Shown: in pieces, positions 15,764 through 39,273 of the stretch | Layout: each line of letters starts with the position of its first letter | Position numbering within the stretch: position 1 is the stretch's first letter | Source of the DNA: an uncultured Bacilli bacterium | GTDB lineage: Bacteria > Bacillota_I > Bacilli_A > RF39 > UBA660 | Assembly (NCBI GenBank): GCA_934119965.1 | Contig: CAKOTA010000005.1 | Location: 12,939-76,938 of the forward strand | DNA length: 64,000 nt | Reading direction: 5' to 3' | Position numbers and translations under genes: made by a program | Notes under the pieces: model-generated | Database searches by the model: none | What the model saw: only the letters and a program-made list of their open reading frames with translations | What the model was told of the DNA's origin: nothing

Positions 15764-16549
15764 TCATATTTTTCTTTTTTTGAATATATTTAATCTTTCA
15801 CAAAAGCGTTCTATTTGTGGCAAAAAAGAATTTACAATAATTACTATTCCTAATATCAACACACGTGTTGTATACTTAAATTCTATAACTATTGATTGAT
15901 TTTGTGAATATTGTGAAATTATTTTCTCAACACCAACAAACGATATCAATATAAATACGTTTAATAAAGTCTGCATTATTTTATAAATTAATTCAAAATT
16001 TTTATTATTTTCATTTATATTTTTCTTATATCCATTATGTATAGTCGTTAGTACAAAGAATAAATATGACCCAATTAATCCTATAGTTAAATCATTATTT
16101 TTTCTAATAAAAACTAGTAATGTAAAAAATAGCAAATTCAAAATAAAATTATCTCGAATAAATTTTATTAATTCATCTAAAAAAGTTTTTATACAAATTT
16201 TAAATTTCAAACATCTAGTACTAAAGTAGTTGATAAATATTATTAATGCAAAAAATATACTAAAATATAATATATTTAAAAATACTATTTTTATATCATT
16301 TTCATTGGATGTTACTTCCCATAAAACAATATCTACCAAGTAAACTATAATAAAAATCTTAACTATTTCAATTAGAACTCTAGAAATATATTTTAAATCA
16401 TTCTTTAGTTTATCATCTTTACCTTTATCAATTATAAGATTAATCAAAATTGATAATGTTATTGGAAAACCGAACAATAGAATAAAATAAATAATGTATA
16501 ACATCAAACACACTCCTTTACATAAACATAAGTAACTGCAACGGTACAA
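15764..16549 (-). CDS. Polytopic membrane protein, hypothetical
   Basis: The ORF has about 8 predicted TM segments. The likely true start is MLYIIYF at ~16504 with RBS AAGGAG. It is co-directional and immediately downstream of the small Cys/His peptide gene. Confidence 0.45.
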   Translation of the reverse strand: MYRCSYLCLCKGVCLMLYIIYFILLFGFPITLSILINLIIDKGKDDKLKNDLKYISRVLIEIVKIFIIVYLVDIVLWEVTSNENDIKIVFLNILYFSIFFALIIFINYFSTRCLKFKICIKTFLDELIKFIRDNFILNLLFFTLLVFIRKNNDLTIGLIGSYLFFVLTTIHNGYKKNINENNKNFELIYKIMQTLLNVFILISFVGVEKIISQYSQNQSIVIEFKYTTRVLILGIVIIVNSFLPQIERFCERLNIFKKRKI

Positions 16550-16617
16550 GTACAGGTTGGACTTAATGTTCCATCTTTACAGATTTATCTTCCCGAACTA
16601 CTGCAACCACTAACTCC

Positions 16618-16710
16618 TCAATGGTGAGAACAACACCCTCTTGCTGCTTCGATTTTCAAAGGTGAAAACAACATAACACATATTAAAACTAAGAATATCT
16701 TTTTCTTCAT
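16618..16710 (-). CDS. 30-aa secreted Cys/His peptide precursor (signal peptide + RGCCSHH)
   Basis: This ORF is not in the track because it is under 60 aa. The product is MKKKIFLVLICVMLFSPLKIEAARGCCSHH with RBS GAGGTAGGTG 5 nt upstream and a TTGACA-17-TATGAT promoter upstream. The conserved leader hairpin precedes it. Confidence 0.35.
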   Translation of the reverse strand: MKKKIFLVLICVMLFSPLKIEAARGCCSHH

Positions 16711-16729
16711 ATTAACACCTACCTCTAAC

Positions 16730-16778
16730 AAAAAAACGCCAATACAAAATCTATTAATCATAGACCTGTACTAGCGTC
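16730..16778 (-). promoter_or_regulatory. Conserved 5' leader hairpin + U-tract (attenuator/terminator-like), copy A
   Basis: On the minus strand the sequence reads GACGCUAGUACAGG-UCUAU-GAUUA-AUAGA-UUUUGUAUUGGCGU-U7 and sits directly 5' of the RBS. It shares CGCCAATACAAAA and CCTGTACTAGCG blocks with the copy at 20066-20114. Confidence 0.45.
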
Positions 16779-17384
16779 ATCGTTCATTAATTGTCTATAT
16801 TATATATCAAAATACAAAATTAAACAAATATTTTATTCAAAATTTCTATTTAACATCATAAATTACAATTATTTTCTTGACAAAACTATTAGTTTTTTAA
16901 CTTTTTTCAGCAGTTTTGTCAAATGTTTTATTTCATCACATATTTTTTTAGTTATCTAATAATGCTAGACAACTAAAACCATAGTTATAAAATATACTCT
17001 AAGTTGGTGACGAATCGTCAACGACTCAATTTTTGCAGGTAAAAAAATGAAACTCACTGAACATTTTTTCAAAAAAGATTTATCATAATATTAAATAAGT
17101 ATATTATTTTTCAATCAGCTATAAATTGTTCTCGATTAATTTCTTAATTTTATGTGCACAAAATTGTAACAAAAAATATTTAATAGACTTCAAATCCTTT
17201 AATACAAACAAAAACGAGAGCTTTTGCTCTCTTCAGGGGGAAATATTATTATCAGTTCGTAACAATTTAATAATTTGTTAAAGTCTTATAAAATAAGGCT
17301 TTTTATTTTATCAAAATTTACTAAATTTTATAAAAATAACTTTATTTTTGCGGTTTAGTATCTAGTTTTGGTATCTGGAATTAT

Positions 17385-17696
17385 TTATACATTAGTTTCA
17401 ACATTTTCTTCTTCAAAATCATTAATTCCTGTGACAATCTTTTCAATAACCTCAATTATATTACTGTATACAGCATTTGAAAGTTTATCATCGTCACCAA
17501 ATGAAGCATCTTTATCTATCTTAATATTATCTCCTTTTTCAAAATTTGAAAACAACGCATCATATAATTTTTTTCCATCAACACTTAATGTGCTTTTAGA
17601 AATTTCAAATATTTCTTCTGTCCCATTGTTAATTGTATATTTATCACTTTTATTATACATCGTATATGTTTTTGTCATATCTTTTCCACCTTTCAT
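17385..17696 (-). CDS. Small acidic protein, partner of PHP-ATPase (overlaps its 3' end by 44 nt)
   Basis: The 103-aa ORF is overlapped by the 797-aa gene on the same strand. A hairpin GAGAGC-AAAA-GCTCTC plus T-run terminator follows at ~17215-17240. Confidence 0.4.
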   Translation of the reverse strand: MKGGKDMTKTYTMYNKSDKYTINNGTEEIFEISKSTLSVDGKKLYDALFSNFEKGDNIKIDKDASFGDDDKLSNAVYSNIIEVIEKIVTGINDFEEENVETNV

Positions 17697-20046
17697 TAAT
17701 AGAATCTATTCCACCTTCTATGTTATCAGCAACAATTTTTAAAATATCATAATCCTTATCACAATATTCCAGTGCTCCATTTTGAATATATATTTTATCA
17801 TTTTCATCTTTTCCTATAAAAATAACATTATCAACATCTAAATTAACAATAAATTGGGGATTATGTGTAATTATAATGACCTGTCTATTTTTACTCATAT
17901 CATAAAAATCTCCAAGTATATTTTTCTTTATAGATGGTTGTGATACATCATCTTCAGGTTGATCAATTATATATATTCTATTATCATCAGTTTGATTAGA
18001 TATTAAATCAAAATAAATTTTAGAATTAAAACCTGATGATAATTCCTTTGTTACATCTTTATCACTAGCATCATTTATTGCTTTATCAATTAAAAAATAA
18101 TTATCTATTTCTTTATCTAATTCATTTTTTAGATTTATTAATTTATCATTATAAGAAATGTCTTTATTCCTATTACTAAATCTATCTGGGATAGTACTTG
18201 AATCAATTGAATTTATATCTTTTACACTTTTTCCTAAAACATTATTAATTAAAGTTAGTAAATTGGCGTTTGATACCTCTTTAGTTTTAGTCTTTGCAAC
18301 AAATCTGTATTTTCCAACCTTATTAGATGTTGTCGGTACTTTTTCCTCTTTTATATTAGGTTCATATTTAACTTTATTCCTGTTCTTATAATAGTAATTT
18401 ACAATATTTTCTGAAAAAGAATCCTTATTACTTTCATAATTTGCTATTTTTTCTGTTTCATCTGTTTTAGTCTTCTTTAGTACTTTATCTTTACTTGTGA
18501 ATTCATCATTAATAATATTTATTTTAGAAATTTCAAATAAATTTTGTTTAATTTTATTATTATATTTTGAAATTAATTTAATATTAGAATTTATACTATC
18601 ATTAATATATTTTTCATCTTCTTTATCAAAAAAATCATTTTCCTGTATTTTATCCAATAAAGAATTAATTGATTCAAAATATTCAACTATTTTACCTATT
18701 TTTTTTATTTTTGAATTAATACTAGTAATAGTTGCTTGAGTTACATTTTTAAAATTTAAAGATTTTGAAGTAGCCTCAATAACACATATATCAAAATTTG
18801 TTATTTTATTAAATGCATTACTTTTTTCTTCTTTATTTTTTAATATTGAAATATAATTTTCAATTTCAGATTTATAAATTTCAATATACTTGCTTACTAG
18901 TGGTTCTGCAGGGAAAAATCCATTTAAGAATTCATCACTGTCAAAAGTTTTATTTTCAAACATTTTTCTAATAGAACCTTGCCCATTGAATTTAGAAATA
19001 TTTGATTCAGGTATGGATGAGTTAATTTTAATTTTATTGTTTATTAAATATTCATCATAACTATCTTTAATTTTTTGGTCATTAAGGTAATTATAATTAG
19101 TTAACTTGTGAATAAGTAAAGATTTACCTATCGAATTATCTCCAATTATAACATTAATACCTTTAGAAAGCTTTATATCATATTTATTGTTGTCTATTTC
19201 AATATTAATACTATCTAAATATTTATCAGTAGTAGAATAAAAATTATTAACATAATTAATTCTTTTTGTATTTGTTACTGCCATTGCCAAACCTCTAAAT
19301 GTTGGTAAACATTTTAAATAAGTAAATGAAAAGTCATCATTTTCTTCTGGATATTTAGACCAATCATGACAATCAGAACCTGTTACGAATCTTAAAGTAA
19401 CATCTTTATACTTTTCTTTATTCTTTTCAATATAATTTTTATTAAATATTTCATTTCTTTTTCTCTTGAATTCAAACGATTCAAAATAATCCATGAAAAC
19501 TAATTCATCAAATTTTTCTTTTCCTAAACTCATTACATCGTGACTTCTTGTCTCTTTACTTGATAAGGTCTCTTTTTGATGTGCTATCATTACAACATTT
19601 AAATCTATATTTTTTAAAATATTAAGATATTTATTTTCAGAAAATGAATTTAATTCAATATCGTCATAAAATGGTTTATTGTTTTTTATATCAAATATTT
19701 CATTTTGTATTTTTTTTATTTTTTCTTCATCTTTATCATCAAAAATTGTAATTACATGTAAAACTTTTTTATCATATGTTACTGAAAATTCAACTGCAGG
19801 AAACACTTTTTTAATACTACCTTTGTTTTCTTCTTGCTTTAACTTATTATATATATTGAAATCAAAGTTATCGTGGTCTGAAATAGAACACATATTTATT
19901 TCTCTTTGATTTAGTTTTTCTATTAATAAATCTATATTATCTAAAGTAGATAAATCTACACAATCATCACTTTCTTTGTGTTTAGATGCAATAGAATGAA
20001 TATGAAAATCAACTTTATTCCCTGTTTCAATAATTTTTTCTATCAT
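17653..20046 (-). CDS. PHP-domain phosphoesterase fused to ABC/SMC-like (AAA_21/OLD-type) ATPase
   Basis: N-terminal PHP motifs are present (VDFHIHS, SISDHDNFD, AVEFSV, LHVITIF). The central Walker A is GDNSIGKSLL. The C-terminal Walker B/D-loop is IYIIDQPEDD and the H-loop is IIITHNPQF. Confidence 0.65.
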   Translation of the reverse strand: MIEKIIETGNKVDFHIHSIASKHKESDDCVDLSTLDNIDLLIEKLNQREINMCSISDHDNFDFNIYNKLKQEENKGSIKKVFPAVEFSVTYDKKVLHVITIFDDKDEEKIKKIQNEIFDIKNNKPFYDDIELNSFSENKYLNILKNIDLNVVMIAHQKETLSSKETRSHDVMSLGKEKFDELVFMDYFESFEFKRKRNEIFNKNYIEKNKEKYKDVTLRFVTGSDCHDWSKYPEENDDFSFTYLKCLPTFRGLAMAVTNTKRINYVNNFYSTTDKYLDSINIEIDNNKYDIKLSKGINVIIGDNSIGKSLLIHKLTNYNYLNDQKIKDSYDEYLINNKIKINSSIPESNISKFNGQGSIRKMFENKTFDSDEFLNGFFPAEPLVSKYIEIYKSEIENYISILKNKEEKSNAFNKITNFDICVIEATSKSLNFKNVTQATITSINSKIKKIGKIVEYFESINSLLDKIQENDFFDKEDEKYINDSINSNIKLISKYNNKIKQNLFEISKINIINDEFTSKDKVLKKTKTDETEKIANYESNKDSFSENIVNYYYKNRNKVKYEPNIKEEKVPTTSNKVGKYRFVAKTKTKEVSNANLLTLINNVLGKSVKDINSIDSSTIPDRFSNRNKDISYNDKLINLKNELDKEIDNYFLIDKAINDASDKDVTKELSSGFNSKIYFDLISNQTDDNRIYIIDQPEDDVSQPSIKKNILGDFYDMSKNRQVIIITHNPQFIVNLDVDNVIFIGKDENDKIYIQNGALEYCDKDYDILKIVADNIEGGIDSINERWKRYDKNIYDV

Positions 20047-20065
20047 TAATTACCACCTCACTACT

Positions 20066-20114
20066 AAAAAGCGCCAATACAAAAACTTATAAAATATAAG
20101 CCTGTACTAGCGCT
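20066..20114 (-). promoter_or_regulatory. Conserved 5' leader hairpin + U-tract, copy B (upstream of PHP-ATPase gene)
   Basis: On the minus strand the sequence reads AGCGCUAGUACAGG-CUUAUA-UUU-UAUAAG-UUUUUGUAUUGGCGCU-U5, followed by RBS GAGGTGG and the ATG at 20046. The outer stem is identical to copy A and the apical stem differs with compensatory changes. Confidence 0.45.
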
Positions 20115-20228
20115 TCCTTTTTATATATATTATTATAGCATAAATTCTGTTAATTTTATTATAAAATGACACTATGACGCATTGTTTGCGAGTACCCCAC
20201 TCATATTTTTGGTGTCATTGTGTCACTC

Positions 20229-20930
20229 TTAGCAGTTTTGATATTTAAATATTATTATTTTATGGTTTATTCTATTCTTTTTTATCTTATTTGCTATTTC
20301 TGGACCATATATTACTTCAAAACTTTTCTTAGCTTCATTATAAGAATTAAAATTAAAATATGTATCTATTTGTTTATCAACAGTAAAGCCATTGGATAAA
20401 ATCCAATTATTATAATCTCTAGTTCTACTATCTTTATTTCTATTTCTTATTTCTTCAAACTCACTATTTTCATCATTTTCAATTAATATGATTGTTCCAT
20501 TAGATTTTAATAATCGTTTTAACTCACTTAAACATTTATTTCTTTCAGTTATATCTATAATTGTACCTAATACCCACGAACAAACTATTAAATCTACTTT
20601 ATCACTTTCTAAATTGATTTTAGATAAATTAGAACATATAAATTCTGAAGTATCTTTTTTTGATTTTACTTTTGCTTTTTCTAGTTGTTTATCTGATAAA
20701 TCTATTCCAATATATTTTTTTGAATATTCCTCTAATATATTTAAAAACTTACCAGTTCCACATCCAGCATCTAAAACAATTTTATCTTTACATATATGTT
20801 CTAAATAAGAACCAACTTTATTTTCTCCATCTTCAGCAATACTAAAGATTTCATAATAATCATTATTTTCATAATATGCTTTAGAATCTTTTAAGAGATT
20901 TTTGGTATCCATTTTCTTCACCCTTTTCAT
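20229..20930 (-). CDS. Class I SAM-dependent methyltransferase
   Basis: Motif I reads VLDAGCGTGKF. The 233-aa gene is the last in the overlapping operon. Confidence 0.75.
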   Translation of the reverse strand: MKRVKKMDTKNLLKDSKAYYENNDYYEIFSIAEDGENKVGSYLEHICKDKIVLDAGCGTGKFLNILEEYSKKYIGIDLSDKQLEKAKVKSKKDTSEFICSNLSKINLESDKVDLIVCSWVLGTIIDITERNKCLSELKRLLKSNGTIILIENDENSEFEEIRNRNKDSRTRDYNNWILSNGFTVDKQIDTYFNFNSYNEAKKSFEVIYGPEIANKIKKNRINHKIIIFKYQNC

Positions 20931-21963
20931 ACATTTTAGTTTCAGGAAAAATCATATCAACCATATATTTAGCAATATTTTGTGATTTACCTATTGCAGG
21001 TCTGAAATGCATATGCACTCCAGGTACTGTGTTGATTTCAATTATTCTATAACTATCATCATTTTGTAATTTTTCTATTGAATTGGTCATATAATCAATT
21101 CCTACATATGGAAGTCCAGGAAATGCATCTAAAACTCTCATACCAATATCAATAACACTAGGATGTGCTCTATCAGTATAATCTTCACATATTCCTCCCA
21201 TAGCAACATTAGAATTTGGTCTTAAATATACTTTTTCTCCTAAAGTTGGAATAGTATCCATACTTATACCATTTGCTTTAATATATTTATACATTTCTTC
21301 ATCTACAAGTATTTCACATAAAGCATTTGTTCTTGGATTCATTCTACGATAATTTTCTATTGAAATTAATTCTTTTATAGAATGTTCCCCATCTCCATAT
21401 ACATGAGCAGGATCTCTATGAAGTACTGCATAATCTCCATTCTTTGTAACAAACACTCTATATTCTTTTGCATTAAAATATTCTTCTATTAGCACTTTAG
21501 TTTGTAATCCCCTATTTTGAGTTATCTTATCTATTGCTTTTAACAAATCGTTTTCAGAAGTTATATTTGTATAAACATCATAACCATGAGAACCAAAAAC
21601 AGGTTTTAAAACAACAGGGCAATCAAATACATTAAATGCTTTTAAAATATAGTCAGAGTCAGTTATATTGAATACTTCTCCCATAGGAACACTAATACCA
21701 TTATTTTGTAAAATATGTTTTGTTATTCCTTTATCTCCAGCAAGTATTGAAACATTATATGGCATTATTGATGAATCTCTATCATAGATTAATTCCTCAT
21801 GACCATTATAAGATGCTTTTATTAATTCTAAACTCTCATCTAATACTTCAACACTTATACCTCTTTTTAACATTTCATATATCAATATTTTTTGATTAGA
21901 ATGTAAATTTTTATAAATGTTTTCCATTTTACCATCTACTTTCGCCTGAATCGTGGCTTTCAC
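20881..21963 (-). CDS. ATP-grasp family ligase
   Basis: The 360-aa protein has an ATP-grasp fold pattern (VVLKPVFGSHGYDV..., EYRVFV, IEINTVPG). It overlaps the methyltransferase gene by 50 nt and the ESR-repeat gene by 35 nt. Confidence 0.7.
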   Translation of the reverse strand: MKATIQAKVDGKMENIYKNLHSNQKILIYEMLKRGISVEVLDESLELIKASYNGHEELIYDRDSSIMPYNVSILAGDKGITKHILQNNGISVPMGEVFNITDSDYILKAFNVFDCPVVLKPVFGSHGYDVYTNITSENDLLKAIDKITQNRGLQTKVLIEEYFNAKEYRVFVTKNGDYAVLHRDPAHVYGDGEHSIKELISIENYRRMNPRTNALCEILVDEEMYKYIKANGISMDTIPTLGEKVYLRPNSNVAMGGICEDYTDRAHPSVIDIGMRVLDAFPGLPYVGIDYMTNSIEKLQNDDSYRIIEINTVPGVHMHFRPAIGKSQNIAKYMVDMIFPETKMYEKGEENGYQKSLKRF

Positions 21964-22456
21964 TTGAACTACTATACGAAGTATAACTAGAACGAGTAGA
22001 ATCTTTTTTAGGTTTTGCAGGTTTTCTAACTAGTTTTTTTACACTACCTATAAGATCATCTAATTCATCATTAGATTGTTCTAACATTCTTAATTGTTTT
22101 TCTTCTTCTGATTCTCTTTTTGCTTCATCTCTTAATCTTTTTAATTCTTCAATTTTTTGTCTTCTTTGTTCTAAAGCTTGATTAATTCTAGGATTATTAG
22201 ATGTAATAGTAGGCATTTCTCTTTCTAACTTTTCTATTAAAGAATCAATATCATCCAAATTATTATATCTAGAATTATTTACTTGACCTCTAATATCACA
22301 TCTGCTTTCACTATCATTTCTACTTTCATTAGAAAAATTATTACTTGAATAACTACATCTACTTTCTCCAGTATCTCTACTTTCACTTGGTCTAGATACA
22401 TATGATGGAGTATATCTACTTCCTCTACTTTCACTATTATTTCTACTTTCTGACAT
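21929..22456 (-). CDS. ESR-repeat protein (Ser/Arg-rich termini, central coiled coil), candidate modification substrate
   Basis: The 175-aa protein carries seven ESR tripeptides (SESR/GESR/NESR) clustered at both termini and ends in ...SESHDSGESRW. The central segment is a charged helix. It lies 1 nt after the DUF3419 gene and overlaps the ATP-grasp gene. Confidence 0.5.
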   Translation of the reverse strand: MSESRNNSESRGSRYTPSYVSRPSESRDTGESRCSYSSNNFSNESRNDSESRCDIRGQVNNSRYNNLDDIDSLIEKLEREMPTITSNNPRINQALEQRRQKIEELKRLRDEAKRESEEEKQLRMLEQSNDELDDLIGSVKKLVRKPAKPKKDSTRSSYTSYSSSSESHDSGESRW

Positions 22457-22457
22457 T

Positions 22458-23306
22458 TTATTTTCCTCCTCTTTTTAAAATTAAAACACCATCTTTTTTA
22501 TCCTGCGAACTTCCTTCTAAAGCACTCTTAAATTCTACTTGTTGGAAGTTAAAAAATATCTCTTTTACTTTTCTTAAATCATCTATTTCTGTTCTAGGAT
22601 TAGAATTTCCTATATCGTATAAATAAGCAAAATATATTATATCTATTTTTTTTTGAAATTCAATTAATAAATCTCTATATTTTTTTAATATATCACAACT
22701 ATACATTAAACTTAAATAATCAGATATATTCGATAAAAACATATAATCGAAATGTTCATCTACTTTTAAATCTTTTAAACTTGTATTTATATAAGTAATA
22801 TTTGCATCCTTTATTTGTTGTTTTAATAAATTATACTTACTTTTTTCTAAATATAAATTTTGCCACAATTTGCTATTAGGATTAAAATATTTTGTATTAA
22901 ATAAAGAAGAGTTTCTTAATTCAATACCATTATTATCAAATTTAGATAATTGCTCTAACCAAAACATTTTACTTTCATCAGACATATCTAAACTTGAGAT
23001 AATACTATAATCTAAATTCATATTACTTTCAAACAAAAGTAAATTTATAAAATCTTCATAAGATAAATTTTTTAGAGCACTAATTTTTAGATCCATATAT
23101 GGTTTTGTTAATGGATTAATATCAAACGTTGTTATCTCAGCTGCTCCCTGTAATATTACATTTAATATATGGTCCGTTGAACCTGTTACTGTAATAACTT
23201 TTTTACCAGTTAAATTCAAATATTTCATATATCCAGCAATATTTTCAGAAGTAAAAGGATATATACTATTAAATCTTCCCATAACATTTTCCTTTACTTT
23301 TTGCAT
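22458..23306 (-). CDS. DUF3419 family protein (BtaA-like SAM-dependent 3-amino-3-carboxypropyl transferase fold)
   Basis: The 282-aa protein has the pattern VITVTGSTDHILNVILQGAAEITTFDINPLTKPYMDLKISALKNLSYEDF, which resembles the DUF3419 ITSAGxNxLDYL...AVDLNPxQ..LLELK signature. Confidence 0.5.
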   Translation of the reverse strand: MQKVKENVMGRFNSIYPFTSENIAGYMKYLNLTGKKVITVTGSTDHILNVILQGAAEITTFDINPLTKPYMDLKISALKNLSYEDFINLLLFESNMNLDYSIISSLDMSDESKMFWLEQLSKFDNNGIELRNSSLFNTKYFNPNSKLWQNLYLEKSKYNLLKQQIKDANITYINTSLKDLKVDEHFDYMFLSNISDYLSLMYSCDILKKYRDLLIEFQKKIDIIYFAYLYDIGNSNPRTEIDDLRKVKEIFFNFQQVEFKSALEGSSQDKKDGVLILKRGGK

Positions 23307-24738
23307 CTAAAAATCTTACTAAAACTTTATCTCTTTTAATTTCTTCTAAAGAATTATCTCTTAATGATTTAGTTGTGATACAAGTCTTATCACTTTCTAA
23401 TACCCAAGGGCATGGACTTACATTACCAAAATTATTTATATATATAAATTTATCTCCTGCAGGACATCTATGAACAAAATTAGGTTGTTTACCAAAATTG
23501 TAATTAACTATTATTTGTCCATTATATTTTTCTCTTAATTCATCAATTTGAGAAATTAATACTTCGTTTGGTACTGTCTTAACTAATGTTCTATCTTGTC
23601 CAGAAACTGGTTCCATTATTGAAAAGATTATTTCATCAGCTTGTAAACCTACTGAATCCAAAATCAAACTTTCTAAATCGTATTGATTATTTGAATGTAT
23701 AACAGAACCTATTCTTACTTTATTAACTGATTTTCTTAATGCTTCTAAACCTCTTATAGTTCTTTCATAAGTATTATTTCCTCTTACTGATTCATGTTCC
23801 AATTTATCTCCATCTAAACTAACATGTATCATTTTTAACTTTAATTGATTTAATAACTCTACTTTTTCAGGAGTTATTAAAGATGCATTAGTAGATATAT
23901 CAGTAATCAATCTTTCACTTGCATATTTTAAGATTTCTAAAATATCTTTTCTAATAAGTGGTTCTCCACCAGTTATCTTTAAATGTTTGAAATTATGTAA
24001 AACTAATTCATCTATAATATGATAACATTCTTCAGTAGTTAATTCCCCATCAATTTTTTTATTATTACAAGAAAATATACAATAAGAACAATTATAATTA
24101 CATTGATGTGTAATTTCCCAAATTGCCTTACCTTCATTATTTGGTAAAGTAAATTTACATTCCATACTATTTAAAAATTCATTAATTTTGTTTATATCAT
24201 AACCATTATCAGTATTAATTATTAAAAAGTTGTCTGAAAGATATTCTTCTAAATTATCTATTCTTTGTAGTTCAAATCTTTTTAATATATCCTCTTTGGA
24301 TAAATCACTTTCAATTAATCTCTCTAATCTTGTTTTATCAGAAGCAGTAACATAAATTATTTTATCAAACTTATCTCTTAGGTCATCATTAAGTATTAAT
24401 GCCCAATCAACAATTATTGTTTTATTATCAAAACAATCTAAATAATTAAATAAATATTTATACAATACCCCTTTATATTTTTCCATATATTCTTCATTAC
24501 TATAAATATATTTATTTAAAATTAAAGAATTTATTTCATCATATTCTTTTAATTCAGGAATTACATTTTTTAACTCTAAAATATATGAAGCATTTTTATA
24601 TAAACTTCTTCTAAAAATATCTACATCTACATAAATGTAATCAGGACTATATTTTAAAATATCCTCTGATATAGTTGTTTTTCCTGATGACATTCCACCT
24701 GTTATTCCTATTAATCTATTCATACCAACACATCCCAT
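23269..24738 (-). CDS. P-loop nucleoside/nucleotide kinase-like domain fused to radical SAM enzyme with SPASM/twitch-like C-terminus
   Basis: The N-terminal P-loop is GITGGMSSGKTT. The radical SAM cluster motif is CNYNCSYC and the GGEPL motif follows. Additional C-terminal Cys residues (HRCPAGD...SPCPW...CI) are present. Confidence 0.7.
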   Translation of the reverse strand: MGCVGMNRLIGITGGMSSGKTTISEDILKYSPDYIYVDVDIFRRSLYKNASYILELKNVIPELKEYDEINSLILNKYIYSNEEYMEKYKGVLYKYLFNYLDCFDNKTIIVDWALILNDDLRDKFDKIIYVTASDKTRLERLIESDLSKEDILKRFELQRIDNLEEYLSDNFLIINTDNGYDINKINEFLNSMECKFTLPNNEGKAIWEITHQCNYNCSYCIFSCNNKKIDGELTTEECYHIIDELVLHNFKHLKITGGEPLIRKDILEILKYASERLITDISTNASLITPEKVELLNQLKLKMIHVSLDGDKLEHESVRGNNTYERTIRGLEALRKSVNKVRIGSVIHSNNQYDLESLILDSVGLQADEIIFSIMEPVSGQDRTLVKTVPNEVLISQIDELREKYNGQIIVNYNFGKQPNFVHRCPAGDKFIYINNFGNVSPCPWVLESDKTCITTKSLRDNSLEEIKRDKVLVRFLDAKSKGKCYGKI

Positions 24739-26059
24739 ACTTTATTGGAGTAAATGCTGCTATTTTAGTATTCTTATCAGCATTCTCATATATATTCCAA
24801 TCTATATCATTTGAAACCATATTATAATTTTCTTTTTCTAATTCTTTTATAAGTTTATTTATTTCATTAGTTAAATCATTATTTTCTATATTAGGTTTAT
24901 TACTATGAATATATTGTGTTTTATTTACTACTTCTTTATTCTCGTTATATATTGGTGTACCAACACGATATGCTAAATAATGAAGTCTTAATTCGTGAGG
25001 CATTATTGATAAAATTAATTCTTTTGTTTTTATAATATCTTCTTTAGTTGATGATGGATAATCCAAAATAAAACTTGTTCTTATTCTATAACCAATTTTC
25101 TTTGTTTCTTCTATTACTTGTTTTATATAATTAATATCCATATCTTTATTCATTAATTTTAATAATCTTTCACTACCTGTTTCAATACCATAATGAACCC
25201 ATCTAAATCCAACTTTATACATATATTCTAAAAGTTCTTTATCATAACATTTAATACTACATAATGCCCCAAATAAACATTTGATATTTCTTTTTTCAAT
25301 TTCTTTACAAATTTCTATCATTCGTTCTTTATTGACAGTTGCATTATCATCTAAAAAGATTATTTTCTTTGTATTATATTTTTCTATTAACATTTCTATT
25401 TCATTTACAACATCTGTAACATTTCTTCCATTCCACTTACCAAAATAATATGGTGTAGTACAAAATTTACAAGTTCCAACACAACCTCTTGAAGTAATAA
25501 TAGTTCTTGTATCCATATATTTAGTAATATCTAATAAATCTCTATTAGGAATTGGTAACTTATTAAAATCATTTGTTAATATTTTCTTTTCAGTAAAGTA
25601 TATATCTTCTTTATTTTTTATAACTAAATTAGGAATACTTTTTAATTTATCTATATTATTAATATTTTCTATTACATCAGTAATAATTTCGTCTGCTATT
25701 CCTCTAATAACAACATCTATACCATTATCTAAAAATTTTTGATAAAAGTGAGTAGATGTTTTTCCTATCATTATGAATTTAGTAGGTTTATTTGTATTAT
25801 GAATTGTTTCAAATATATTTTGTATTGTTTCAGTAGTATGTAATGGTAATTGATAATCATAGACAAAAACAACTATATTTTCATCAGATAAATATTCATT
25901 AATATTATTATTCATTCTATTAACATCCATATCAATTACTTTTACTCTATCAAATTTTTTATTTATAATTGTTGCTATTTGTAATACATCTAATGGTTCA
26001 GCTAAAATAGACCTATTTGTAAATGGTTTATTTGCTGGATTAACTACTAAAACATTCAT
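24716..26059 (-). CDS. B12-binding domain radical SAM enzyme (class B rSAM)
   Basis: An N-terminal cobalamin-binding Rossmann-like region is followed by the radical SAM motif CVGTCKFC. The 447-aa gene is first in the operon and has an extended -10 TGCTATAAT upstream at ~26085-26110. Confidence 0.75.
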   Translation of the reverse strand: MNVLVVNPANKPFTNRSILAEPLDVLQIATIINKKFDRVKVIDMDVNRMNNNINEYLSDENIVVFVYDYQLPLHTTETIQNIFETIHNTNKPTKFIMIGKTSTHFYQKFLDNGIDVVIRGIADEIITDVIENINNIDKLKSIPNLVIKNKEDIYFTEKKILTNDFNKLPIPNRDLLDITKYMDTRTIITSRGCVGTCKFCTTPYYFGKWNGRNVTDVVNEIEMLIEKYNTKKIIFLDDNATVNKERMIEICKEIEKRNIKCLFGALCSIKCYDKELLEYMYKVGFRWVHYGIETGSERLLKLMNKDMDINYIKQVIEETKKIGYRIRTSFILDYPSSTKEDIIKTKELILSIMPHELRLHYLAYRVGTPIYNENKEVVNKTQYIHSNKPNIENNDLTNEINKLIKELEKENYNMVSNDIDWNIYENADKNTKIAAFTPIKYGMCWYE

Positions 26060-26198: not shown

Positions 26199-26498
26199 TT
26201 AATTTTTCTTAGGCAGTTTATCATAATCATACTTTTCCATAATTGGATTGAGTAAGTCATTTGCTTTTGTTAATTCTTCTACTGCTTGTTCTAGTGTATA
26301 TTCACTTTTACCTTCTTTAAGTAATTTTAAATGTTCTGTAACTTCAAATATTATAAATCCTACTTCTCTTGCTTTTTCTATTTTATTAAAATCAAATTGT
26401 AATAAATCAGTTTCTGATTCTTTATATTGTTCAATTAAGTCTTTTAAATCTTTACTGGATTTATTTGCATATTTATCTTTAGAAAAATAGAAAAGCAT
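26199..26498 (-). CDS. Hypothetical protein
   Basis: The 99-aa ORF is followed by a long hairpin terminator (ATACTATGATAT ... ATATCATAGTAT plus T7) at 26141-26195. GGTATCTA direct repeats lie upstream at 26596-26650. Confidence 0.4.
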   Translation of the reverse strand: MLFYFSKDKYANKSSKDLKDLIEQYKESETDLLQFDFNKIEKAREVGFIIFEVTEHLKLLKEGKSEYTLEQAVEELTKANDLLNPIMEKYDYDKLPKKN

Positions 26499-26677
26499 TT
26501 CTTCATTTTTTACTATTAATTATACTTTAATTCTATCATTTTTCAAAAAAATTGTCCACTTTACAATATTAAAATATAAGTTTATCAAAAAAATACCATA
26601 TTATTGGTATCTAAATATAATATTTAATATCTAGTGTGGTATCTAGATAAATCAAAAATAGTTAAAAATTCCTTATA

Positions 26678-26776
26678 AATAAAAGTATTCCCCTCTTTCG
26701 AGGGGAATTTCAGGGGGTTTTGGTTGCGCACTCTCATCTGTTGAATCGTAAGAGTGCTACGTGATATTATCACGCT
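26678..26776 (-). ncRNA. Candidate ~100-nt small RNA with consensus sigma-A promoter and intrinsic terminator
   Basis: On the minus strand, TTGACT-17-TATAAT sits at 26783-26811. Two internal hairpins follow (CGTGATA/TATCACG and GCACTCT/AGAGTGC), then the terminator UUCCCCUC-GAAA-GAGGGGAA plus a U-run. The unit lies directly downstream of the recG stop. Confidence 0.4.
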
Positions 26777-26822
26777 AGTATAATTATAGAGTATAATCTC
26801 TAAAAAGTCAAGTTGATATTCG

Positions 26823-28796
26823 TTAGTTCAAATCAATAGAATCTTCTAATAACCTAATTAAATTACTGTCTTTATTTTTTTCTAAATATTCCATCGCATC
26901 CTCTTTAGCTTTAAGCAAAATATTATAATCTTTTTTTATATCTGCTATCTTAAATACCATATCTCCACTTTGTCTTAATCCAAACAAATCTCCAGATCCT
27001 CTAAGTAAAAAATCTTCTTCGCTAACTTTAAAACCATCATTAGTTTTAGTTAAAACATTTAATCTTTCAGTTTCTCTATTACTAATTAGAATACAATATG
27101 ATTGTAAATTATTACGGCCCACTCTACCTCTTAATTGATGTAAGGCTGATAATCCAAATCTAAAAGCATCAAAAATAACAATCATTGTAGCATTTTTAAC
27201 ATCTATTCCTACTTCAATAACTGTAGTACTTATTAATATATTAATTTTATTATCTTTAAAATCATTCATTATTTTTTCTTTTTCGGCATTATCCATCTTA
27301 CCATGTAAAACACCTATTTTATATAATTTACCAAACGCTTTATTCATTTTTGTTTCTAATTCATAAACATTTTCTAAATCCGATTTATCACTTTCTTCAA
27401 TTAATGGAGCAATAACATACACTTGATGATTATTTGATAATTCATTATACATATCATTTAATACATCTTTTATTTCTTTTTCCTTTTTTAATTTTGTTAT
27501 TATTTCTTTTTTACCACTTGGTAATGTCCTAATGCTAGATACATCCATATCACCATATAATGTAATAGCATAAGTCCTTGGAATTGGGGTTGCACTCATA
27601 TACAAAATATCAGGAGTAATTCCTTTATTTTTCAAATTACTTCTTTGATTAACACCAAAACGATGTTGCTCATCAGTTATAACTAAACCTAAATTTTTAT
27701 ATTTAACATTATCACTAATTAAAGCATGAGTGCCAATTATAAAATCTATTTCACCATTTTCTAATTTAGAATACAATTCTTTTTTTTCTTTTGCTTTTAA
27801 TTTACCCGTCAATAAACCTACATTTATATTATAATTTCTAAATAACTCTTTTATATTTTCATAATGTTGAATAGCTAAAATTTCAGTGGGTGCCATTAAA
27901 GCAGATTGATAGCCGCTTAAATAATTAATATACATACTTATAATTGCTACTATTGTTTTACCGCTTCCAACATCACCCTGTAATAATCTATTCATTCGAT
28001 ATTTACTATTTAAATCTTTATATATATCCTCTACAGCTTTTAATTGATCAGTAGTTAAATCAAAACTTAAATTATCAATAAATTCAGAAACATCTTTATA
28101 ATCAACATTTCTAGTAAGTCCTATTTTATTTTTATTATTTTTTAAATAATTCATTTTTAACATAAACAAAAATAGTTCTTCATATTTAAATCTTGTTCTT
28201 GCTTTTTTTAATTCTAATAAATTATTAGGATGATGTAATATACTAATAGATTTGTTTTTATCTTCAAATTTATATTTTTCTTTTAAATAGTCAGGTATAT
28301 AATCAATAATACTATAATTTGTTTCTAAAGCTTGATCAATATATAATGATATATTTTTGCCACTTATACCATATGTAGAATGATATATTGGTTCTATTTT
28401 TTCTTTTAAGATTCTTCCAAATCTTATTTCTGATGTGACGATTGTGTTATGTTTTTTATCATACTTACCTATCACGGTAATACTTGTTCCAATTTTTAGG
28501 TTGGATTTTAAAAATCCTCTATTAAATATAATTATGTTAAATAAATTTGAACCACTATTTAATTTAAAACTCATTTTATCCATTTTTCGATTAAAGTGAA
28601 AAACATTAGGTACAGTTTCTACTACGCCATCCATTATTATTTTATCATTATCATTTAATTCTTCTATATTACTTCTTTTAATTACTTCATATCGAAATGG
28701 ATAAAAATTAACTAGGTCTTCAACTTTATTAATACCAAGTTTATTTAATAAATTTATTTTCTTAGGTCCAATTCCTTTGAGTGTACTAAGTTCCAA
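26823..28796 (-). CDS. recG: ATP-dependent DNA helicase RecG
   Basis: The protein has a LKGIGPK wedge/N-terminus, Walker A LQGDVGSGKT, DEQHRFGV, and RGRVGR. The likely start is the TTG at 28796 with RBS AAGGTGGTG. The track ORF extends to 28874 with an implausible hydrophobic N-terminus. Confidence 0.85.
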   Translation of the reverse strand: MELSTLKGIGPKKINLLNKLGINKVEDLVNFYPFRYEVIKRSNIEELNDNDKIIMDGVVETVPNVFHFNRKMDKMSFKLNSGSNLFNIIIFNRGFLKSNLKIGTSITVIGKYDKKHNTIVTSEIRFGRILKEKIEPIYHSTYGISGKNISLYIDQALETNYSIIDYIPDYLKEKYKFEDKNKSISILHHPNNLLELKKARTRFKYEELFLFMLKMNYLKNNKNKIGLTRNVDYKDVSEFIDNLSFDLTTDQLKAVEDIYKDLNSKYRMNRLLQGDVGSGKTIVAIISMYINYLSGYQSALMAPTEILAIQHYENIKELFRNYNINVGLLTGKLKAKEKKELYSKLENGEIDFIIGTHALISDNVKYKNLGLVITDEQHRFGVNQRSNLKNKGITPDILYMSATPIPRTYAITLYGDMDVSSIRTLPSGKKEIITKLKKEKEIKDVLNDMYNELSNNHQVYVIAPLIEESDKSDLENVYELETKMNKAFGKLYKIGVLHGKMDNAEKEKIMNDFKDNKINILISTTVIEVGIDVKNATMIVIFDAFRFGLSALHQLRGRVGRNNLQSYCILISNRETERLNVLTKTNDGFKVSEEDFLLRGSGDLFGLRQSGDMVFKIADIKKDYNILLKAKEDAMEYLEKNKDSNLIRLLEDSIDLN

Positions 28797-39187: not shown

Positions 39188-39273
39188 TGGTACCGGCCAA
39201 GGGACTTGAACCCTCACGATATTGCTACCAATGGATTTTGAATCCATCGCGTCTACCATTCCGCCAGACCGGT
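39188..39273 (-). tRNA. tRNA-Leu (anticodon CAA), type II with long variable arm
   Basis: The minus-strand sequence is ACCGGTCTGGCGGAATGGTAGACGCGATGGATTCAAAATCCATTGGTAGCAATATCGTGAGGGTTCAAGTCCCTTGGCCGGTACCA. A 7-bp acceptor stem, the CAA anticodon in a 7-nt loop, a long variable stem-loop, the T-loop GGTTCAAGTCC and an encoded CCA end are all visible. Confidence 0.85.

Follow-up and report, generated by a model that had tools for sequence, protein, structure and literature searches.

A conserved terminator-like leader precedes swappable, mostly anti-phage defence genes on integrated mobile elements of uncultured Bacilli

Why should two unrelated genes be preceded by the same structured leader? 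The window in which this question arises is a stretch of 64,000 nt from an uncultured Bacilli bacterium (RF39; UBA660), positions 12,939-76,938 of the forward strand of contig CAKOTA010000005.1 (assembly GCA_934119965.1). A preliminary description had located a hairpin, U-run, SD and ATG at two sites on the minus strand, and all of these features are indeed found at both. We refer to the two copies as A and B. The features of the leaders and of the surrounding DNA are summarized in Table 1.

Table 1. Positions in the window of the two leaders, the genes behind them and the element that carries leader A.
Feature	Positions	Strand	Content
-10 element, leader A	20132-20140	-	Extended -10 promoter element TGCTATAAT
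Leader A	20066-20122	-	Purine tract 20122-20114; hairpin GCGCUAGUACAGG...UUUGUAUUGGCGC 20113-20071; U5 20070-20066
SD region, leader A	20047-20065	-	AGUAG, then SD GAGGUGG (20059-20053); last backbone sequence 5' of the cargo ATG (20046)
-10 region, leader B	16799-16809	-	TGATATATAAT
Leader B	16730-16778	-	Hairpin ~16777-16737; U7 16736-16730
Gene of leader B	16504-16710	-	Pseudogene of a secreted CCSHHGGV-motif protein
Cargo gene 1	17653-20046	-	797 aa; N-terminal histidine motif DFHIHS; C-terminal ABC/OLD-type ATPase region
Cargo gene 2	17385-17696	-	Small partner, ~97-103 aa
L module, left edge	20163-20225	-	Long inverted repeat TGACACAATGACAC...GTGTCATAGTGTCA, inner hairpin, T-run
R module	17241-17382	-	Conserved right arm of the element; direct repeats CAGATAC/CTAGATAC at 17377-17358
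attR	17232-17240	-	Right-hand copy of core CCCCCTGAA
Displaced terminator	17206-17231	-	Native small-RNA terminator, GAGAGCAAAAGCUCUC and U-run
Small-RNA gene	26680-26811	-	Follows recG; integration target; two hairpins, invariant AACCAAAACCCCCUGAA

Copies A and B have predicted folding energies of -25.9 and -24.1 kcal/mol respectively (z = -4.8 and -5.3), and none of 200 shuffled sequences folded equally well. They have in common a basal stem of 11-13 bp with the same four G-U pairs, and a UU bulge. The apical stems differ, with CUUAUA/UAUAAG in A and UCUAU/AUAGA in B, and as had been described the differences are compensatory. The apex of the B subtype is also present at five other loci. A 12-mer and a 13-mer common to the two copies have no exact match elsewhere in the 64 kb window. 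On application of a covariance model to the window copy A scores 91.2 bits and copy B 64.7 bits, and the next match (24 bits) is to copy A read on the other strand. In both copies a -10 element lies 19-20 nt upstream of the hairpin. The SD of leader B is AGAGGUAGGUG.

Further copies of the motif occur in other genomes. A scan of whole genomes for exact arms gave 78 loci, which belong to uncultured Bacilli/"Tenericutes" and represent ~75 genomes at the species level, with one or two copies in each. All are in the sense orientation with an ORF 18-30 nt downstream, and the covariance model gives 60-96 bits on the sense strand against 17-27 bits on the opposite strand. Where the basal stem departs from Watson-Crick pairing, at four positions, the sense strand has G-U in every case. 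The single structured leader that had been suggested for unrelated genes is conserved and strand-specific. Searched against Rfam, the hairpin has no match at E <= 10. Nor does its distribution resemble that of a REP- or MITE-type dispersed repeat, with two copies in 64 kb, few per genome, and each of them in sense before an ORF.

The apical segment occurs in 41 variants of 11-20 nt, nearly all of which can still form a stem; 96.5% of cells are paired, compared with ~53% when the partners are slid. The apex therefore varies in both sequence and length, and the UU bulge is the only conserved unpaired element. The arms behave differently. In a sample of 31 hairpin sequences chosen by an SD anchor, and not by the arms, eight had a single change (of four kinds) and the arms were otherwise invariant. 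They are conserved to the same degree as the -10 box, whereas the spacer, the upstream region and the apex vary. Even in a diverged copy, L142, the architecture and the 5' arm GCUAGUA are retained, and two of the G-U pairs have become Watson-Crick pairs by changes in the 3' arm. The hairpin is carried on at least four different backbones. It is also present at a second chromosomal locus, where it follows a Bro-N gene and an XRE-ImmA-type gene. The apparent conservation may be exaggerated by horizontal transfer of the elements. In L127, from a more distant species, the same promoter-SD arrangement occurs without any hairpin, so that expression in itself does not require the hairpin.

The ORFs downstream of the motif belong to ~30 unrelated families, of which ~20 are of defence type, including PHP-ATPase, Gabija/OLD, KAP, YobI, Schlafen, DUF3644, ResIII and nSTAND. 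Further cargo matches are to GajA, PDC-M49A, PDC-S19 and PDC-S46. The product of cargo gene 1 is a candidate defence protein. It has no Pfam family at E <= 0.01 and only weak PADLOC matches to PDC-M49A, GajA and PtuA; a relative, L028, matches PDC-M49A at 1e-195. Twelve members of the family lie behind the same leader. The PHP label is an earlier reader's interpretation of the DFHIHS motif. Cargo gene 2 gave no family match in our searches, and at eight other loci, too, a small ORF (81-107 aa) lies behind the PHP-ATPase.

Cargo is exchanged with ORF precision between conserved flanks. At L059 the same flanks enclose a different gene, with homology ending between the SD and the ATG, while at L012 the same PHP-ATPase cassette has different upstream genes. 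The type of SD goes with the backbone and not with the cargo (compare L004 with L066). Conservation of the L and R modules is 80-93% around different cargo, which is the arrangement of an anti-phage defence hotspot. The inverted repeat at the edge of the L module (-20.4 kcal/mol, z = -3.4) is conserved with different upstream genes at four loci. It probably terminates the operon upstream, with a DNA-level role also possible. The most frequent neighbours of the hairpin are integrase/relaxase, XRE and Fic genes. It is well supported that the hairpin, the extended -10 promoter (or upstream Fic stop codon) and the near-consensus SD form a fixed 'expression socket' for exchangeable cargo, and that the sockets belong to genomic islands, their hosts being low-GC gut bacteria, uncultured and Bacilli/Mycoplasmatota-like.

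In the window the socket lies on an integrative element. The core CCCCCTGAA is directly repeated at 26717-26709 and 17240-17232, and the segment between the two copies (26708-17241) is the element, with hairpin A at the head of its cargo slot (the PHP-ATPase and a 103-aa partner). Such cores are on the hairpin strand in 75 of 76 cases. The R module follows directly after the last cargo stop codon, and is 82-93% identical at ~26 loci. The left-hand core lies at the 3' end of a small RNA, not described before, whose gene adjoins recG, and is followed by an element-type terminator at 26708-26687. This RNA has its own promoter (TTGACT at 26811-26806 and TATAAT at 26788-26783) and a predicted fold of -35.6 kcal/mol (z = -6.9); compensatory changes are found for 11 of its 11 predicted pairs across 19 species, and it has no match in Rfam. 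Its 3' end is the attachment site for integrase/relaxase elements. In addition to the direct repeats there is an occupied and an empty site within one species. L125, whose insert encodes an integrase, Mob_Pre and AAA_25, and L127 have identical RecG and identical sequence as far as CCCCCTGAA, and diverge past the core. The element integrases are phage-type, acting at CCCCCTGAA, and the elements encode or formerly encoded tyrosine integrases together with Mob_Pre relaxases; the window element itself has no integrase. The terminator displaced to the right of attR was itself classed as terminator-like, and is of a type found directly after the small RNA at three other loci. The ordinary terminators after the core vary in sequence by locus but belong to a few recurring types, consistent with their being swapped as blocks.

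Hairpin B, by contrast with A, heads the native chromosomal gene adjoining the att site. What had been taken as a Cys/His peptide gene is a pseudogene, with in-frame TGA and TAA in place of Gly and Gln codons; intact homologues of 207 and 127 aa are present at L055 and L061. Neither this nor the -10 elements appeared in the preliminary description. The latter had offered, as an alternative, that the two copies are repeats bounding a 3.3-kb insertion. The cassette is certainly exchangeable, since L059 and L012 differ as above and L018, apparently of the same species as the window, carries a different element. Yet hairpin B is not a scar at the boundary; it is the leader of the next gene, and the 3' border is made by the right arm and att core (17382-17232). 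The homology with L018 (98-99% identical) picks up again at ~17251, just before the core.

What does the leader do? Among 96 unique instances of the motif, 92 have an SD and 90 a T-run of at least five. A -10 element ends 14-24 nt before the hairpin in 73, and in 55 of those it is TGnTAnAAT. In 16 of the 96 there is no promoter, and a Fic stop codon lies 8-9 nt before the start of the hairpin. In this position the hairpin must double as the Fic terminator, and the cargo can be reached only by read-through. A stable stem-loop (-24 to -26 kcal/mol) with a G+C-rich base (GCGC/GGCGC) and an immediate U-run is the anatomy of an intrinsic terminator, in agreement with the original description of a terminator-like hairpin immediately before the SD. 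The predicted start site leaves ~6-12 nt of transcript before the stem, and the purine tract can pair with the U-run so that the helix reaches the very 5' end. Both minimum-free-energy and centroid folds are a single hairpin with the near-consensus SD unpaired.

The reading that we tentatively prefer, with a probability of about 0.45, is that the hairpin would act both as an intrinsic terminator that leaks and as a 5' hairpin, throttling expression of the cargo and insulating it. Transcription would start ~6-12 nt upstream of the stem, and most transcripts would stop at the U-run to give an RNA of ~55-60 nt. A minority would read through and be translated from the strong SD, with the hairpin at the 5' end of the mRNA screening the ribosome-binding site from upstream context. 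The net result would be that defence genes, which are potentially toxic, are expressed at a low level independent of context, whatever the cargo. There is a precedent in abiD1 of the Lactococcus lactis plasmid pIL105, where the promoter gives a ~50-nt transcript terminated just upstream of the gene, the full-length mRNA was shown experimentally to arise by rare read-through, and expression is very low (PMC2661086). The abiD1 leader and the present one both have a promoter, the poly-U of a terminator directly 5' of the RBS and, behind it, a defence gene or, here, mostly a defence-type gene. However, the abiD1 leader is specific to one gene and has a further stem-loop, which sequesters the RBS and is opened by a phage protein, whereas here one sequence-conserved hairpin serves ~30 unrelated cargo families in ~75 genomes and leaves the SD free. 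The two are not similar in sequence. Removal of the abiD1 terminator gave no rise in reporter output (PMC2661086), and by analogy the throttling effect here could be small.

A plain terminator does not explain why a basal stem with four G-U pairs should vary no more than the -10 box does when the apex is drifting, and this leaves room for a trans-acting factor. The hairpin might be a conditional switch, an efficient terminator overcome only when a factor of host, element or phage origin reads the basal stem or modifies RNA polymerase, with cargo induced on infection or element activation. The near-invariance of the arms and G-U pairs in the SD-anchored sample, the survival of GCUAGUA in L142, the adjoining XRE, XRE-ImmA-type and Bro-N regulator genes and the repeat motifs upstream of the leader promoters would all fit. 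The abiD1 leader RNA is bound by a phage protein that activates expression, but that activation is translational and not antitermination (PMC2661086). Moreover no RNA-binding or antiterminator gene consistently co-occurs with the hairpin, an alternative structure would not fit into the transcript, and the apex is variable. We regard such a switch as unlikely, albeit a serious contender. Its most general form is quite doubtful. In this form a factor of any of these origins would recognize the sequence-specific basal stem of a promoter-proximal terminator, and the hairpin would be a universal, cargo-independent and infection-responsive antitermination switch, the shared control point of a mobile 'defence socket'. 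It is also rather unlikely that the hairpin is solely a 5'-terminal stabilizer and insulator, causing no appreciable termination but shielding the mRNA from 5'-dependent RNases and standardizing translation initiation. The proximity of the predicted start to the base of the extended stem, the pairing of purine tract with U-run and the consistently unpaired SD are what such a role would predict. Yet it has no need of a U-run, and U5-8 follows the G+C-rich-based stem in 90 of 96 instances, and the promoterless hairpins directly past a stop codon are in the normal position of a terminator.

The hairpin stands where variability begins on several unrelated backbones, and G-T pairs and a variable loop length would suit a hairpin in single-stranded DNA. 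Given the present or former integrases and relaxases, it might be a recombination, single-strand origin or transfer site that marks the cargo boundary for that reason. This is very unlikely, as the attachment core that has been demonstrated differs in sequence from the hairpin, the swaps are ORF-precise with the SD staying on the backbone, and the hairpin is always in sense with promoter and SD, in one or two copies per locus without arrays. Different inverted repeats lie upstream of the relaxase genes. The integron-type GTTRRRY was not seen, and the ssoA signatures RSB and CS-6 (TAGCGT; PMC4598088) have no convincing counterpart; TAGCGC is present only on the strand where the stem would have C-A mismatches. 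An inert duplicated scar or passenger of recent horizontal transfer is highly improbable. The elements are mobile mosaics whose cross-species identity may come from recent spread, and in six of seven recG-anchored species (69-82% RecG identity) there is no hairpin within 10 kb downstream of recG. Against that, there is no variation in position, orientation, U-run or SD coupling over at least four backbones and ~75 genomes, the arms are as conserved as the -10 box between variable flanks, and the apical variation preserves structure. The principal proposal of the preliminary description, a metabolite-sensing riboswitch or classical attenuator governing a small regulon under one signal, arose from finding a terminator-like hairpin directly 5' of the SD of two genes. 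It is already contradicted and hardly tenable. There is no aptamer with invariant unpaired nucleotides, no conserved loop or junction, no leader peptide and no pair of mutually exclusive terminator and antiterminator folds, for which the few nucleotides before the stem are too little. The downstream genes are not a coherent metabolic set, a genome has no more than one or two copies, and the copies are always in variable-gene islands.

Hotspots in P2/P4 phages (PMC9122126) and in ICEs and genomic islands (PMC10121019, PMC10250203) are described as having variable anti-phage cargo between conserved flanks. As far as their abstracts describe them, the likeness is in the conserved flanks of an integrated mobile element with cargo alleles that differ between close strains. 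The differences are that the flanks here are non-coding (the promoter-hairpin-SD socket on one side and the att arm on the other), that the hosts are uncultured low-GC Bacilli and that the target is a small-RNA gene beside recG. No shared structured leader is described in those abstracts. In integrons a Pc promoter with attI and attC cassettes provides a fixed promoter and leader that expresses any cassette, defence included. Similarly, here one promoter and leader serves whatever cargo follows. But there is no integron integrase, and the hairpin is not an attC site, as it lies 5' of an ORF that has its own SD, behind a promoter. Cargo seems to be exchanged by recombination between backbones, of a homologous or illegitimate kind, and not by a site-specific event at the hairpin. 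Integrative mobilizable elements and their integrase-less derivatives (IME/CIME) accrete at the 3' ends of tRNA- and tmRNA-type genes. The elements here are like these in the direct repeats of a short core at an RNA gene's 3' end, the replacement terminator brought by the element, the tandem units of which some lack an integrase, and the occupied and empty sites in one species. They differ in their target, and the likeness covers the context and not the hairpin.

The leader offers a concrete and portable way into the question of how mobile elements express arbitrary and potentially toxic defence genes, with its strong promoter, built-in terminator hairpin and consensus SD. The analysis also reveals the recG-adjacent small RNA as an integration target, with a family of integrative elements stacked there. 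If the invariant stem does bind a factor, this would be a new regulatory layer of anti-phage defence, and if the leader is a switch the hairpin would be a sequence tag for new defence genes in uncultured gut bacteria. The motif is directly searchable, and 'guilt by leader' flags unannotated candidate defence genes from a lineage that is not yet culturable. Those flagged include a 685-aa P-loop protein, a 428-aa zinc-ribbon-like protein with two partners, and a 520-aa protein.

Two minus-strand sites in the window have the arms GCUAGUACAGG and UUGUAUUGGC in common: hairpin A, before the gene for a 797-aa PHP-ATPase, and hairpin B, before a CCSHHGGV gene. Searching the window located these blocks only there. 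Each basal stem has four G-U pairs and a UU bulge, and the apical stems differ between A and B through compensatory changes. After each hairpin come a U-run (U5 or U7), then an SD, then an ATG, and a −10 element lies 19-20 nt upstream (TGCTATAAT for A and TGATATATAAT for B). The calculated folding energies are −25.9 kcal/mol (A) and −24.1 kcal/mol (B), with z about −5 for both and no shuffled sequence as stable. The shared structured leader of the preliminary description is therefore real, and far from chance. A covariance model, built after the two sites had been found, scores A at 91 bits and B at 65 bits in the window; the next match, at 24 bits, is the opposite strand of A. A simple terminator scan overlooked both hairpins because of the bulge. 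Rfam returned nothing relevant, either at the gathering threshold over the whole window or at E <= 10 over 16400-20500 and 26500-26850. The sole gathering-level match in the window is a tRNA (54.7 bits). The features are collected in the table.

Positions of the features in the window and in related loci
Feature	Locus	Position	Strand	Remarks
tRNA	window	39191-39273	-	
sRNA gene	window	26680-26811	-	directly after recG; promoter TTGACT-17-TATAAT; RNA ~110 nt
att core CCCCCTGAA	window	26717-26709 and 17240-17232	-	
Point of divergence at CCCCCTGAA	L125; L127	12069; 3144		
Integrative element	window	26708-17241		
Short direct repeats	window	26646-26605, 17377-17358	-	
Short direct repeats	L018	5320-5300		
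Short direct repeats	L142	12150-12200		
99-aa ORF	window	26199-26498	-	
Modification-type operon	window	20229-26059	-	radical-SAM gene at 26059
175-aa protein	window	21929-22456	-	
L module	window	20225-20056	-	inverted repeat TGACACAATGACAC...GTGTCATAGTGTCA with T-run, promoter, hairpin A, AGUAG, SD
Left edge of L module	window	20163-20225	-	the inverted repeat and T-run
Hairpin A	window	20113-20071	-	
PHP-ATPase and small ORF	window	17385-20046		
R module	window	17382-17197	-	begins directly after last cargo stop codon
Hairpin B	window	about 16777-16737	-	
CCSHHGGV pseudogene	window	16504-16710	-	native gene behind hairpin B
685-aa cargo protein	L019	2027-4084		
428-aa cargo protein	L052	1192-2478		
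520-aa cargo protein	L004	867-2429		

We scanned one genome from each of 185,579 species, using as query the two arms with a free centre of 6-26 nt. This gave 78 loci. The hosts are ~75 MAGs labelled uncultured Bacilli, Bacillales, Tenericutes, Mollicutes or Erysipelotrichaceae, together with Clostridium sp. CAG:417 and CAG:609 and Candidatus Faecisoma (Mycoplasmatota incertae sedis). Each genome has only one or two copies of the hairpin, so there is no regulon, and the suggestion of a small regulon under one signal fails on this genome-wide search with the arms. At every locus the hairpin lies in sense ahead of an ORF, typically 18-30 nt from it. A −10 element ends 14-24 nt upstream in 73 of the 96 unique instances (extended in 55 of those 73), and in 16 of the 96 a Fic-domain gene has its stop codon 8-9 nt ahead of the start of the hairpin. 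T-runs of five or longer occur in 90/96, and an SD in 92/96. The leader is a conserved sense-strand hairpin with a U-run, placed between promoter and SD or between stop codon and SD.

The arms were fixed by design in the genome scan, so only the apex is informative in that sample. There are 41 different central segments, and the apical stem is kept in nearly all. Double changes occur in four of the five apical pairs, and 96.5% of cells are paired compared with about 53% for slid partners. A second sample came from a metagenome scan anchored on the SD and not on the arms, and comprises 31 real sites plus 5 chance matches. Here the arms are almost invariant; eight of the 31 sequences have one change each, of four kinds, one preserving a G-U pair and three disruptive. 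Conservation of the arms equals that of the −10 hexamer, while the spacer, upstream region and apex vary. The covariance model also found two diverged copies. One, in locus L029, is a tandem second leader with one doubly compensated pair. Another, in L142, stands ahead of an OLD-like gene and retains the purine tract, basal stem, 1x1 internal loop, apical stem, U7 and SD (−22.8 kcal/mol, z = −5.6); two of its G-U pairs have become Watson-Crick pairs by changes in the 3' arm. The distance between the arms varies from 11 to 20 nt, which argues against a double-stranded DNA operator and favours a single-strand hairpin. The pattern of G-U pairs shows the strand forming it to be the sense strand.

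Comparison with related loci showed that the cargo is flanked by two conserved non-coding modules, L (the promoter-hairpin-SD side) and R (3' of the cargo). In locus L059 both the upstream operon and R match the window at 92.6% identity, but a 985-aa ResIII helicase takes the place of the PHP-ATPase pair; homology breaks between SD and ATG. Locus L012 has the same cassette with other upstream genes, at 96.8% identity over 3,032 nt, and the shared stretch begins with the TGACAC repeat and ends at the terminator that follows R. On the hairpin-B side, locus L018 and the window share 98-99% identity and apparently come from the same species; L018 contains a different PHP-ATPase and a different right arm, with homology returning at CCCCCTGAA. 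The type of SD goes with the backbone and not with the cargo (L004 compared with L066), and cargo swaps are therefore ORF-precise. The alternative offered earlier, that repeats bound a 3.3-kb insertion, was correct in that the cassette is exchangeable, but its borders are the L module, which includes hairpin A, and the R module, not hairpin B. Within mobile islands the hairpin serves as a constant component of a cargo socket. The inverted repeat at the left edge of the L module is kept ahead of differing upstream genes, and could terminate the backbone operon or be bound by a protein or relaxase. Its ATAGTGT presumably resembles the nick region of pMV158. When the L module was compared by BLAST with plasmids nothing matched, and with phages the one match was a promoter-like, AT-rich stretch of 25 nt in Lactococcus phages. 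Neither the hairpin pattern nor the right-arm pattern had a match in IMG/VR.

The sRNA following recG consists of two hairpins, a CUUACG loop, an invariant single-stranded AACCAAAACCCCCUGAA and a terminator (−35.6 kcal/mol, z = −6.9). All 11 predicted pairs exhibit covariation across 19 species. It has no Rfam match (26500-26850, E <= 10), and is previously undescribed. The gene is also present in L052, L061, L071, L115, L125, L127 and L142. CCCCCTGAA, at its 3' end, occurs 76 times in the 928 kb of loci analysed, 75 of them on the hairpin strand. L125 and L127 encode an identical RecG protein, but only in L125 is recG followed directly by genes for a tyrosine integrase, a Mob_Pre relaxase and an AAA_25 protein. 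The two are identical up to CCCCCTGAA and diverge immediately past it; the element in L125 supplies its own terminator. Cores occur in tandem, with three in L127, and the terminator 3' of the core belongs to a few block-swapped types across loci. The occupied and empty site in one species, the tandem cores and the block-swapped terminators show that integrase/Mob_Pre mobilizable elements have CCCCCTGAA as their att core. Homologues or fragments of the L125-type integrase or relaxase are found in about 30 hairpin loci.

The window contains one such integrative element, without an integrase, comprising a truncated XRE gene, a radical-SAM/ATP-grasp/methyltransferase operon, the L module and the cargo. 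We had initially read the R module as a small-RNA gene, and replaced this with the right att arm; it is the conserved right arm of the element family. Direct repeats of the CTAGATAC type lie at both ends. Short direct repeats are seen near the att core or upstream of leader promoters in different elements, as CTAGATAC(C), CTACCCATCA and AAAGGTTGCAA. These are probably arm-type integrase sites or repressor sites, and different repeat families accompany different element families. In relatives the island begins with an XRE-family regulator of 185-189 aa, and the 99-aa ORF matches about 100 aa of it. HTH_3 covers residues 21-76 of the L073 protein, but the 99-aa ORF gives no HTH match; the window copy seems to have lost that part.

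Past the second core comes a terminator of the native type, as found directly after the sRNA in L061. Hairpin B, at a further 465 nt, heads the gene that is the native neighbour; in L061, recG and the sRNA are followed by the hairpin, at 130 nt, and by an intact CCSHHGGV protein. What had been described as a Cys/His peptide gene is a pseudogene in the window, intact in L055 and L061. The in-frame TGA is a nonsense mutation. Genetic code 4 was ruled out as its cause, since the long ORFs are the same under code 11 and stops are mostly TAA; the window (24% G+C) uses the standard code. Intact homologues are secreted and C-terminally anchored, with CCSHHGGVSGC...DGTLSPTCTC, and match no Pfam family.

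The hairpin is not bound solely to the att site beside recG. A second type of locus (L066, L060, L041 and L074) adjoins a P-type cation ATPase and lacks the CCCCCTGAA core; its order is an XRE-Peptidase_M78 (ImmA-like) fusion, a Bro-N protein, the hairpin, and Schlafen or other cargo, so that here too the hairpin precedes defence cargo. Among seven species sampled at RecG identity 69-82%, six had no hairpin within 10 kb downstream of recG, L142 being the exception. In L127 the promoter is followed directly by the SD, with no hairpin between.

The ORFs downstream of the hairpin form 31 BLAST clusters, most of them defence-type by Pfam and PADLOC. They include PHP-ATPases (PDC-M49A), full-length GajA with its partner, other OLD-family ATPases, KAP and YobI NTPases, ResIII helicases, DUF3644 (PDC-S19), PDC-S46, Schlafen AlbA_2 and Schlafen-type helicases, AAA_13, an SDH/ClpP-like protease, nSTAND and ADP-ribosyltransferase. 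A minority are secreted Cys/His-rich or membrane proteins, and several have no annotation. A small ORF of 81-107 aa, often overlapping, lies 3' of the PHP-ATPase in the window and in L009, L017, L006, L025, L028, L034, L042 and L067, which suggests a conserved, PDC-M49-like two-gene system. Three cargo proteins match neither Pfam nor PADLOC: a P-loop protein in L019, a Cys-rich protein in L052 within a three-gene set (as in L011 and L054), and one in L004. By position these are candidates for new defence systems.

How might the leader act? Most transcripts would end about 55-60 nt from the start, at the hairpin terminator, with read-through giving low cargo expression; the same hairpin would cap the 5' end of the mRNA. 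In the experimentally analysed abiD1 leader there is a 50-nt terminated transcript, and full-length mRNA arises solely by read-through (PMC2661086). That leader likewise has poly-U then an RBS, in the same promoter-proximal terminator arrangement (PMC2661086). We found no described leader of the same kind as ours in the literature. The hairpin is a new, sequence-conserved variant of a known design, the promoter-proximal terminator leader of a defence gene, generalised here as a common socket for swappable cargo in integrative elements of an uncultured gut lineage.

The main rival to a leaky terminator is a switch in which a factor acts on the hairpin, and the invariance of the basal stem, left unexplained by the leaky-terminator model, speaks for it. 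Yet no RNA-binding gene consistently co-occurs with the hairpin, nor was pairing found between the leaders and the neighbouring sRNA: pairing with this C-rich sRNA or with the right arm is no better than for shuffles (p = 0.07-0.9). By eye, the 5' end of the sRNA and the 5' arm of the hairpin show an 8-nt complementarity, but it is not conserved across the species alignment. The riboswitch of the preliminary description fails. Roles at the DNA level, as a recombination site, single-strand origin or oriT, are unlikely given the placement, orientation and copy number of the hairpin and the separate, demonstrated att core. Regions upstream of relaxase genes hold unrelated inverted repeats, and oriT was rejected, as were ssoA, integron and REP/MITE readings.

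The operon within the element encodes a DUF3419 protein, an ATP-grasp ligase, a methyltransferase and a 175-aa protein rich in ESR/SESR repeats. It also encodes two radical-SAM enzymes, of which one is a fusion to a CoaE-like kinase and has a weak SPASM match. An exact-sequence look-up of the methyltransferase for other strains gave no record. The G-rich SD (AAGGGGGG) of the radical-SAM gene at the start of the operon is complementary to the C-rich stretch of the sRNA. The operon looks like a peptide-modification (RiPP-like) or nucleotide-modification cluster.
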